A stretch of DNA of 64,000 bases from Spirulina sp. Its GTDB lineage: Bacteria; Cyanobacteriota; Cyanobacteriia; Phormidesmidales; Phormidesmidaceae. Shown piece after piece: positions 1 to 3,000 of this stretch. The first letter of the stretch is position 1, and every line of letters starts with the position of its first letter. Position numbers: made by a program. The stretch covers positions 1 to 64,000 of the forward strand of contig JBIPSI010000021.1 in the NCBI GenBank assembly GCA_044070495.1, given 5' to 3'.

Positions 1-3000
1 CCCCAAGGGCGAGGGGGGCCGGAAGGTGGTTCGGTTTTTTCTTACGGTTACGGTCTGCTTGGTTCCTGTGGTTGATCCCCCCTAGCCCCCCTTAAAAAGG
101 GGGGAATCGGATGTAAAGTCTCCCTTTCTACGAGGGGAATCAGATTCAAAGTCCCCCTTTCTAAGGGGGATTTAGGGGGATCCCCAAGGACTTGTGGCAT
201 GAAAACAAGGTGTGTATGAGCAATCATTTCACTGGGAGAGGGGCCGGGGGTGAGGGCTCCGAGAATTACACATCATCCAATGGCACCAAATCACGGACTT
301 GGGCGGCGGAATCTAGGTTGAGGGCTTGTTGGGCGAGTTCCTGGCAGTGGGGGTAGCTGAGGGTTCGCACCTGGGCCTTCACCGAGGGGATGACCGGGAT
401 GCTGACGCTGAGTTCTTTGACTCCTAGGCCGACGAGGAGGGGCACCGCCTGGGGATCCCCGGCCACGCCGCCGCAGACGCCGACCCATTTGCCATGTTTG
501 TCGGCTCCGCGCACGGTGAGGTCAATCATCCGCAGCACGCTGGGGTCGAGGGCATCGACGAAGGGGGCCAATTTGGGGTGGCCGCGATCCATGGCCAGGG
601 TGTATTGGGTCAGGTCGTTGGTGCCGATGGAGAAGAAATCCACCTGTTCGGCGAAGCGTTCGGCCATCACCGCCGCCGAGGGCACCTCGATCATGATGCC
701 AATTTCGATGGGGGGCACGCCCAGCTTTTGGCGCTCCTCTTCCATCACTGCCTTGGCCATGTGGAGTTCTTCTAGACGGGCAATCATCGGGAACATCACC
801 CGTGCCTTACCTGCCGTAGAAGCTTTGAGGATGGCGCGAAACTGAGTTCGCAGCAGTTCGGGACGGTCGAACCCCAGGCGAATGCCCCGTTCCCCTAGGA
901 AGGGATTTTCCTCGTGGGCCATGGGCAGATAGGGTAGGGGTTTGTCGCCCCCCACATCCAAGGTGCGGATGATCATGGGCTTATCTGGCCCCAGGGTTTT
1001 GAGAATGCTGGCGTAGATCACCTCCTGCTCGTCTTCGCTGGGGGCGGAACTGGCCTCCATAAAGACAAATTCCGTCCGCAGTAACCCGACCCCTTCGGTG
1101 CCGACCTTGAGGGCGGCTTCGGCATCCTCTAACCCGCCGATGTTGGCCACCACTTCGATGTGCCGTCCATCCTGAGTGTGGGCCAGGTCAAAGGCGTGGC
1201 GTAGGTCTTCCTCCTGCTTGGCCTTTTGGCGGGCGATCCGGGTTTGGATGGCCTCGATTTCAGTGGCGGTGGCATTGAGGCGCAGCTTGCCCCTGGTGCC
1301 GTCCAAAATCACCGGGGTGCCGTCGGGCAGATCCAGGGTGCGGGCCTCGATGCCAGCAATGGCAGGGATACCCATGGAACGGGCCAAAATCGCCACGTGG
1401 GAGGTGGCCCCTCCGGCGACGGTGCAGAACCCTTTGACGCGGCTGGGGTCGATGGTGGCCATGTCGGAGGGGGTGAGGTCTTCCGCCAGCAGGATGGTGT
1501 TTTCGGGATAGACCTGGGCTTCTTCTTGGACGCCTAGCAGAATGCGGAGAACCCGGTCGCCCACGTCCCGCAAATCATTGGCCCGTTCCGCCAGCAGTTC
1601 GTTTTTAAGCTGGGCGAGCTGGTTAGCCTGGGTGGTGTAGGTTTGCTGCCAAGCAAAGGCGGCACTTTTGCCCTTGTCGATGGCGCTGGTGGCGATGTCC
1701 GCCAGTTCCGGGTCGTCCAGCAATTCCTGGTGGGCGGAGAAAATCGCCGCCTTGCCGGGATCGCCCTGGCCATGCACCTTAGCCCGTAGGCTTTCGATTT
1801 CTAGCTCCGCCTGGGCCATGGCCTTCTCCAGCTTGCGGCGTTCGGCGTTGGGGCTGTCTCCGGTTTCGGGCACGTCCAATTCCTGGCGACGGGCGCGGAG
1901 GGTATTGCCCACCGCCAAGCCTGAGGAAGCCGCTACCCCCAAAATAATGTTCGGGTCATCGCTCTTGGGCCGGGGTGCCGGGGCAGACACTTCGGACTGG
2001 GCAATGCTGGCGGGGGCCGACATAATCGGCGTGGCTCCCTCTTCCCCCAGCCCGGTGCGGACGGCTTCCTCCAGTTCGGCAATGGCTTCCTCGGCATCGG
2101 CCCCAGATGCCTCTAGGGTCACGGTGTCTCCCCGCGCAATCTCCATCCCCATCAACCCCACCACGCTGCGAACATTGGCGCTGTCGCTGCCCCGGTGAAT
2201 GCGGATGGTGGACTGATACTTCTTCGCCAACTGGGCCAACACCGCCGAGGGCCGCGCATGGAGTCCCGATGGATTGGGAATGATGATGCCCTTCGACCGA
2301 ATCGTTATCCCAGCGGACTCATCGGCGGCAGCGGCGACTTCCGCCAAAACCAGGGTCAATACCGTATCCCTAGCGGCATTGGCGAACCCCACATTGGGCC
2401 GAAATTCCGCCACCCGCTCCCCATTCGTCACCACAATTTGGGTCAGTAGACTACGGGCCTTCTGGGCTACAAAGTCGGCATCAAACTCGATTAGGATGTC
2501 CCCAGTTTTCACCTGGTCGCCCACCTTCACCTTGGGAGTAAAGCCCTCCCCCTTCAGCGCCACCGTATCCAGGCCAATGTGCATCAAAATCTCGATGCCC
2601 TCGGCGGTTTTCACCGTGGCGGCATGGTTGGCGCTGTGGATTTGCACAATTTCCCCATCGCAGGGGGCCAACAGCGCCTGACTGGTGGGGTCGATGGAAA
2701 TGCCGTCGCCCACCATTTTTTGGGCAAAAACGGGGTCGGGCACGGTATCGATGGGCACCAACTGCCCAGACAGGGGAGCCACCAAAACCAGGGTTTTCGT
2801 TTTGGCAGGAGGGGCTTGCACAGTGGTCATAGCGGGTTTGAGTAGGGAGTTTCGGTGGATGGCCCTCACCCCCAGCCCCTCTCCCCGTGGGAGAGGGGGG
2901 CCGGAAGGTTGTTCAAAATTCGTCTCCCCAATAGCGACCGCTCATACACATCCTGTTTTCATGCCATAAGTCCTTGGAGATCCCCCTCAATCCCCCTTGA

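Follow-up and report, generated by a model that had tools for sequence, protein, structure and literature searches.

A two-gene phosphotransferase system, probably for glucose, in a filamentous cyanobacterium

Two genes of the cyanobacterium Spirulina sp. (GCA_044070495.1) together encode what we judge from their sequences, with a probability of roughly 0.7, to be a self-contained glucose phosphotransferase system (PTS). The type of system is textbook and its mechanism conventional, and it is found here in a phylum where the PTS was thought to be missing. The host genome is 5.3 Mb in size and 97% complete. The window, the whole 64,000-nucleotide stretch that we analysed, is the start of the 91-kb contig C21 and carries the gene for a fusion of EIIA, HPr and enzyme I, while the partner permease is encoded on contig C17. 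The features are as follows.

266-2830, minus strand: multiphosphoryl transfer protein EIIA(Glc)-HPr-enzyme I, 854 aa, with five Pfam domains
2417-2785, minus strand: EIIA(Glc) domain, aa 16-138, with the phospho-acceptor His84 (codon 2579-2581) and His69 (PF00358, EIIA_1, E 5.5e-46)
2057-2293, minus strand: HPr domain, aa 180-258, with His191 within LHARP (codon 2258-2260), from PF00381 (E 1.3e-25) and the motif position
359-1939, minus strand: enzyme I, with N-terminal domain aa 298-416, phospho-His domain 442-514 (His478) and PEP-binding domain 549-824 (Cys786) (PF05524, PF00391, PF02896)
1-72, minus strand: exact overlap with C17:211-282, 72 identical bp that occur genome-wide only at these two places
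54-257, no strand assigned: dispersed intergenic repeat between the two PTS genes, with another copy at 2940-3102 and blastn matches of 70-87% on many contigs
3343-4407, plus strand: divergent ABC permease gene, outside the PTS, which marks the conserved PTS site in the genus (PF00528/PF19300)
C17:330-2183, start of contig C17: open reading frame for the EIIC-EIIB-EIIB' permease, 617 aa, the partner of the fusion

The fusion protein passes all three curated NCBIfam models for its domains, scoring 557 bits against a cut-off of 342 for TIGR01417, 140 against 97.5 for TIGR00830 and 73 against 48 for TIGR01003. Residues 296-849 align to the solved enzyme I structures 2hro and 2kx9 (E 1e-121) with the TSH and CG motifs matched, and we take His478 and Cys786 to be the equivalents of the active His and Cys of the E. 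coli enzyme. The phospho-acceptor motifs are intact just where the earlier note had placed them (MHIG at 83, LHARP at 190 and TSHV at 476 in the fusion; ACITRLR at 447 in the permease), and the second EIIB reads VALTRLR, at 558. Neither H69 nor H84 of EIIA varies among the 40 cyanobacterial copies aligned. The gene pair contains an enzyme I with its phospho-His and PEP-binding domains, an HPr with its active-site His, and EIIA, EIIB and EIIC of one class with the phospho-acceptors present, namely His84 in EIIA(Glc) and Cys448 in EIIB, the EIIC (PF02378) being above cut-off. Domain models, motifs and linkage all uphold the proposal of a complete glucose-class PTS in a cyanobacterium, as far as sequence can. 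The enzyme I is the sole one in the host genome, where two other tblastn matches are 28% identical, and no HPr kinase was found in this 97%-complete genome. We also considered and rejected a regulatory PTS (Ntr) or DhaM-type identity for the fusion: its N-terminal domain is EIIA(Glc), a permease is present, and the scores for PRK11061 (406 against 583) and PRK11377 (162 against 520) are both below cut-off.

The two genes lie on either side of a contig break, for which the dispersed repeat at 54-257 is the probable cause. The contig ends had been said to share sequence, and they do so exactly over 72 bp, window positions 1-72 being equal to C17:211-282. This is not a clean end-to-end overlap, however: the next 78 bp (C17:133-210) are degenerate, giving 84% over 150 bp, and C17:1-142 is a fragment (47 aa) of an unrelated sugar ABC permease, found at that identity nowhere else, so the C17 tip looks chimeric. 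Because the intergenic DNA of close relatives (4/4) matches the C21 end, crosses the shared stretch and runs on into the start of the C17 permease, the join of C21 to C17 is supported; the implied gap between fusion and permease is 312 bp. No sequencing run contained half of the gene's words, and none of the four runs examined bridges the contig gap. One of these four yielded an RNA-library contig of 5157 nt that covers a relative's fusion gene at ~90% identity, but since the same library has contigs of up to 45 kb at similar depth, it cannot separate RNA from DNA.

Linkage was followed through 71 related loci from a species-representative collection, all with cyanobacterial titles but for three: two 'uncultured bacterium' records and an Obscuribacterales one, the latter nesting among the Planktothrix copies in the tree. 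The closest named loci are those of Phormidium sp. FACHB-1136 (95%) and Nodosilinea records (84-91%). The fusion lies upstream of the permease on the same strand in 58 of the 71 (56 at no more than 600 bp, two with nag genes intervening), in agreement with the adjacency reported before for six of six relatives. In 11 of the 13 remaining loci the contig extends less than 700 bp upstream; a further locus has different genes in that position, and the last is the remnant of a deletion. The divergent ABC permease gene at 3343-4407, presumably of the DppB/OppB type, is present in 40 of 40 genomes of the genus and adjoins the PTS in 14 of the 71 loci. Gene order and spacing point to the single operon described by the earlier note, whose two genes may be co-transcribed; searches for promoters and terminators turned up about as many as chance would give (1 vs 1.1 and 6 vs 4.4).

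Glucose is the best-supported of the sugars considered and the likely substrate, to go by model scores and pocket residues. The permease passes the glucose model TIGR02002 with 658 bits against 592, and PRK11089 by only 0.1 bit (647.1 against 647). It is 55.7% identical to a Salmonella ptsG product, matching the earlier figure of about 56%, and falls with E. coli PtsG on one side of a split that leaves NagE on the other (UFBoot 91-100, SH 0.999). A cryo-EM study of E. coli IICB(Glc), in its accessible part, gives nine glucose contacts: E202, R203, H211, H212, N215, K257, T297, E298 and F337 (PMC11393339). All nine are conserved in 62 of 62 near-full-length cyanobacterial copies, this being the set kept from the 71 loci and the host copy once partial or broken ones were dropped. 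E. coli NagE departs at three of the contacts (N202, Q212, M257). We rejected NagE as the identity of the host permease, which does not pass the GlcNAc model TIGR01998 (481 against 553 bits) and has E and K where N202 and M257 would be expected. Counting against glucose, 25 of the 62 copies have Q instead of H at position 339. Where the choice had previously been left between glucose and GlcNAc, the model scores and the 62/62 pocket residues would favour glucose. No NagB, NagB-II, NagE or FruA (fructose PTS) was found in the 97%-complete host genome. Glucokinase and sugar ABC permeases are present, so another glucose route may exist in the host.

Near the PTS in 11 of the 71 loci lies a gene that we take to be alpha-amylase-like, which would fit a 1-linked glucoside (leaked glucosylglycerol, for instance, or some small alpha-glucoside) as the physiological substrate in place of free glucose; the same gene, however, flanks empty sites too. 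E. coli IICB(Glc) does tolerate substitution at OH-1 (PMC11393339, available part), but the permease scores far below cut-off on the maltose and alpha-glucoside models (362/665, 348/632 and 259/607), and no phospho-glucosidase gene was noticed beside the PTS in the 71 loci, whose neighbours are partly annotated. We regard a glucoside as a decidedly improbable substrate.

An amino sugar (glucosamine or GlcNAc), imported for cell-wall recycling or chitin scavenging, has more in its favour, though we still consider it unlikely. In the host genome there is no nag linkage of the permease, and nagA and murQ are present away from the PTS. In seven of the 71 loci nagB and/or nagA adjoin the permease (nagB in seven, nagA in five), lying between both PTS genes in loci L053 and L055; six of these seven loci show no nagE. 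Both NagB-bearing genomes among the 123 of the order carry the permease, and in Azospirillum B510 the same permease stands beside nagB-II, nagA and murQ. Bacillus has a PtsG-like glucosamine permease, GamP. A class-wide protein search, on the other hand, revealed a second, distinct permease of 47-49% identity in four of 401 genomes. It is of NagE type: the two copies scanned both pass the GlcNAc model (648-653 against 553 bits), all four have the N202/M257 pocket signature and lie with nagB-nagA, and they form a clade of their own. In three of the four genomes it has no enzyme I of its own. Locus L055 has the order fusion-nagB-nagA-nagE-ptsG and L053 the same minus nagE, as loss of nagE from the L055 order would yield; the simplest reading of the nag linkage is as what remains of a larger operon whose two permeases were fed by one fusion. 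We therefore infer that the nag genes beside some copies are best explained by the second, NagE-type permease, even though this is seen in only one of the seven nag-linked loci. Co-occurrence with nagA was discarded as a test of substrate: nagA is near-universal, in 38 of 39 genus genomes with the PTS or without it, and NagB is found in only two of 123 genomes of the order. Furthermore, two other Azospirillum loci and two annotated Burkholderiaceae loci have no nagB-II, nagA or murQ neighbours.

Single-sequence AlphaFold modelling of the glucose-type permease gave a pLDDT of 38, and an alignment-based model (mean pLDDT 85.7) was used instead; its best experimentally solved match is E. coli IICB(Glc), 8qsr. 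In this model EIIB' shows the element order of an EIIB, with block pLDDT values of 90-95. The second EIIB is indeed Cys-less, as had been noted: of 70 cyanobacterial copies examined, 65 have a readable motif and all 65 lack the Cys. This is not special to cyanobacteria, however. The Cys is also missing from six of six readable copies of the Azospirillum/Burkholderiaceae sister group and is kept, shifted by one residue, in 37 of 46 more distant relatives, which indicates that the EIIB duplication predates the transfer and that the Cys was gone before it or was lost in parallel. In five pairs dN/dS is 0.07-0.10 for the permease and 0.06-0.14 for EIIB', which denotes purifying selection. A domain that is kept under selection without its Cys, when most distant relatives keep theirs, could be a permanently unphosphorylated docking site for a regulator, and the system mainly a sensor of carbon status. 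We find this highly improbable, as the translocation residues are fully conserved, no regulator is linked among the 71 loci, an HPr kinase was not found and the best NagC match is a ROK protein at only 25% identity. Our best guess is that EIIB' is needed for full activity of the glucose permease, by analogy with fructose permeases, whose IIB is duplicated with both copies needed for full activity in E. coli (PMC2405797, section 12).

Of 39 other genus genomes at least 90% complete, 20 have the permease, compared with the 23 other Nodosilinea genomes given before; it is present in 32 of 123 genomes of the order and in 41 of 401 of the class. The class carriers fall into four families (24/40, 8/46 plus the host, 7/45, and one more), and none was found in four large families (46, 46, 36 and 19 genomes) among those searched. 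These frequencies come from the class-level protein search; a phylum-wide PF02378 search, which took in non-photosynthetic classes, filtered more strictly for completeness and scored only a few candidates in each genome, had six of 401 above cut-off, one of them a fructose permease. Among the named carriers are Planktothrix, Adonisia, Aphanothece, Chroococcus, Stenomitos, Kovacikia, Elainella, Drouetiella, Egbenema and Rubidibacter, which confirms the presence in other filamentous cyanobacteria and the homologues named earlier in Planktothrix, Rubidibacter, Aphanothece and Kovacikia. The named sets and those known by handle come from one collection and overlap, and their counts are not additive.

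The cyanobacterial permeases are monophyletic (SH 1.0 for 62/62 and UFBoot 100 for 14/14, tree supports throughout being a split-based recount). The nearest sampled group is Azospirillum with Burkholderiaceae, at moderate support for the permease (SH 0.97, UFBoot 87) and poor support for the fusion protein (0.41); other named relatives are Competibacteraceae, Elusimicrobia and Eremiobacterota records, and most non-cyanobacterial members of the tree are unnamed. The trees suggest one acquisition by cyanobacteria, with Azospirillum/Burkholderiaceae as the nearest sampled relatives. Contamination or misbinning from a heterotroph might be suspected from the foreign-looking sequence at the C17 tip and from the many loci in metagenome-assembled genomes, but is already contradicted and deserves next to no credence. 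The fusion gene stands among cyanobacterial core genes on a 91-kb contig, copies are found on two complete chromosomes and in many isolates, all cyanobacterial copies form one clade that tracks host groups, and the GC3 values of 0.74 and 0.78 (85th and 98th percentile of 1094 long ORFs) are within the range of the genome.

Within Nodosilinea the system had been described as vertically kept. Vertical descent agrees with the distances of the fusion gene, which across 15 genomes correlate with those of the neighbouring ABC permease gene (r 0.95, for a linked gene and with pairs that are not independent), but the system has often been lost, with 19 of 39 genus genomes lacking the permease. At the 17 permease-less loci examined, the flanks have closed up in 11 (one with a 55-aa EIIB' remnant), the fusion stands alone in one and there are other neighbours in five. 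Two well-supported pairs join a genome with the permease to a sister genome that lacks it. The pattern is best accounted for by repeated loss from a single ancestral site, and because about half of the genus lost the system, its benefit would be conditional.

The glucose system is accompanied by other PTS types in the class, where enzyme I is above cut-off in 75 of 401 genomes. The 20 enzyme I loci examined from outside the glucose set comprise 12 fructose operons (fusion, FruK and FruA), seven DhaM-like fusions without an adjoining permease (three of three scanned pass TIGR02364) and one glucose-type locus at a contig end. Fructose EIIC is above cut-off in 30 of 301 genomes, and the three fusion types form three clades, each with SH 1.0. 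Matches near 48% identity had been set down by the earlier note to a different PTS fusion, but it missed that they represent a complete fructose PTS and that some genomes have a GlcNAc permease. A wider picture, which we offer tentatively and hold to be somewhat less than an even bet, is that filamentous cyanobacteria possess an overlooked old PTS repertoire. It would consist of a glucose system and a GlcNAc permease sharing one fusion, as remnants of a once-acquired fusion-nagB-nagA-nagE-ptsG operon, and of a fructose system independent of these, the whole being common in one family (24/40 with the glucose permease). This repertoire could be the main route of dark and mixotrophic sugar scavenging in mats and crusts, with import tied to the PEP/pyruvate ratio in an oxygenic phototroph and the conserved EIIB', lacking a site for phosphorylation, as a docking or signalling module.

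Compared with the E. coli glucose PTS (PtsI, HPr, Crr and PtsG), EIIC-EIIB is ~55% identical, with the nine contacts, the EIIB Cys and the fold all kept. Unlike in E. coli, a single dedicated protein combines enzyme I, HPr and EIIA, the permease carries a further, Cys-less EIIB, the host is an oxygenic phototroph and no Mlc-like partner was seen. The ptsP-ptsG pairs of Caballeronia, Burkholderia, Paraburkholderia and Azospirillum, known from annotation, encode the same fusion and an EIICBB' with a Cys-less EIIB' at 52-56% full-length identity; the gene order is that seen here in Burkholderiaceae and divergent in Azospirillum, and these hosts are heterotrophic. Systems of the FruB/FruA and NagF/NagE type share the EIIA-HPr-EI layout and a duplicated IIB in the cognate permease (PMC2405797, section 12), whereas here the duplicate is a glucose-class EIIB at the C-terminus and the permease is PtsG-type.

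The earlier note had set the finding against the statement that cyanobacteria lack the PTS. That statement is in print, in the available part of PMC2405797, but was already softened in 2010 by PMC2900214, whose accessible text claims a PTS in N. azollae and otherwise describes it as 'lacking in most' cyanobacterial genomes; passages of PMC6979478 and PMC10095879 repeat the N. azollae claim. The gene cited as a sugar importer is an enzyme I-containing one (Nostoc azollae Aazo_5089, N. punctiforme Npun_R1176; PMC2900214). As the portion of the supplement that is available assigns ptsG, ptsH and ptsI all to one gene, Aazo_5089 is probably a permease-less fusion like DhaM. According to available sections of a 2023 review, cyanobacterial heterotrophy or mixotrophy on glucose and fructose uses GlcP/Gtr, FrtABC (FrtRABC) and Gls (PMC10515406). 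These work by symport or ABC transport followed by a kinase, whereas the system described here would use PEP-driven group translocation; the best sugar-porter match of the host genome is below the family cut-off (144 against 238). In the same sections of the review 'PTS' appears once, in a reference title. The accessible portion of PMC13543919 (2026) includes no cyanobacterium in its table of characterised glycoside PTS transporters, and S. elongatus 7942 is without PTS (PMC10562401, in part). The main texts of the Rubidibacter (PMC3910548) and Planktothrix (PMC5259702) genome papers contain neither 'PTS' nor 'phosphotransferase', and nothing on a cyanobacterial glucose PTS stands in the available parts of PMC8100219, PMC13324651, PMC7901476 and PMC5668215. 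A full-text search of the literature, with subscription journals mostly outside it, found no description of such a system among the papers listed. Public databases already name the proteins, as had been pointed out, with the permease as glucose-specific PTS IIBC.

In the mechanism that we propose, PEP would phosphorylate His478 of enzyme I, and the phosphate would then move inside one polypeptide to HPr His191 and EIIA His84. From there it would reach Cys448, in the EIIB of the membrane protein, and finally C6 of the glucose brought in by EIIC. The resulting glucose-6-phosphate could enter glycogen, pentose-phosphate or glycolytic metabolism with no kinase step needed. EIIB', which would not be phosphorylatable, most likely aids docking of the fusion's EIIA, on analogy with the duplicated IIB of fructose permeases. 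The gene pair would have entered cyanobacteria once, been passed down several filamentous lineages and often been lost, and may serve dark or mixotrophic sugar scavenging in mats and crusts.

An intact glucose PTS, kept under selection in about one in ten of the cyanobacterial genomes sampled and accompanied by fructose and GlcNAc branches, would change the genome-based reading of mixotrophy in mats, crusts and Planktothrix. For cyanobacterial physiologists this is surprising and easily tested. It becomes possible to ask which cyanobacteria live on outside sugar in the dark, for which sister genomes with and without the locus offer a natural experiment, and how an import that consumes PEP is accommodated alongside the Calvin cycle. 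As a native cassette, the two genes might also serve as a part in the photomixotrophic engineering of laboratory strains that have no PTS (PMC10562401, accessible part).

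The fusion gene for EIIA(Glc)-HPr-enzyme I (EI) is flanked in the window by both families of a dispersed, palindrome-rich intergenic repeat, which occur at dozens of genomic sites. At the start of contig C17, which carries the partner permease, the sequence looks like an assembly chimera.

Window 54-257, 2854-2914, 2940-3102: palindrome-rich repeats, two families
Window 4748-5938: dxr (Pfam)
Window 6023-12364: putative suf iron-sulfur cluster operon and divergent regulator; looks intact (ORFs)
C17 1-210: odd contig tip; sugar ABC permease fragment, low GC, then degenerate intergenic-repeat copy
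C17 7086-7247: broken copy, second EIIB' end

The broken copy of the Cys-less EIIB' end lies 5 kb downstream of the permease and adjoins the small gene that in relatives comes after the permease, which suggests a local insertion with duplication. A similar additional piece is present in another genome, G019.

Elsewhere, the following features are decay states of the glucose PTS genes.

L072:2819-3198: EIIC remnant, in-frame deletion
L137:2501-2665: EIIB' scar, 55 aa
L129:7730-10285: orphan fusion gene
L053:6007-7865: permease interrupted inside EIIB (complete chromosome)

One record, L047, labelled Candidatus Obscuribacterales, is likely mislabelled or misbinned, as the whole locus and its neighbours are Planktothrix-type and its copy falls within the Planktothrix copies in the tree.

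Other PTS types were also found in cyanobacterial genomes. A predicted NagE-type GlcNAc permease is accompanied by nagB-nagA in 4 of 401 genomes, and in these most such permeases have no enzyme I of their own. Their EIIB domains vary: one copy has two, both Cys-bearing, and in another single copy the second is Cys-less. Complete fructose operons encode EIIA(Fru)-HPr-EI, 1-phosphofructokinase and FruA; of 301 genomes in the class, 30 have an EIIC(Fru) that scores above the cut-off, including 19 of the 29 from one family.

L158:3991-7842, L159:956-5194, L160:2952-6769, L161:5766-9336; L055:956-7314: NagE-type permease with nagB-nagA
L162:2475-7686, L174:2181-7612, L175, L178-L187: complete fructose operons
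L168-L173, L176:4626-8559: lone DhaM-HPr-EI fusions
L162:3-2030, L178:302-2689, L179:8383-10857, L183:8260-10650, L185:8808-11330: PEP-synthase-like gene adjoining fructose PTS

One of the lone DhaM fusions has dhaK two genes downstream, and the gene formerly reported as a PTS of Nostoc azollae is probably of this same kind. Finally, 5 of 13 fructose PTS loci have, immediately next to the system, a putative PEP-synthase-like gene, so labelled in part for its weak similarity to EI; a relative of this gene lies close to the glucose PTS in six Planktothrix-type loci. Its position beside the PTS could possibly reflect a link to PEP supply.
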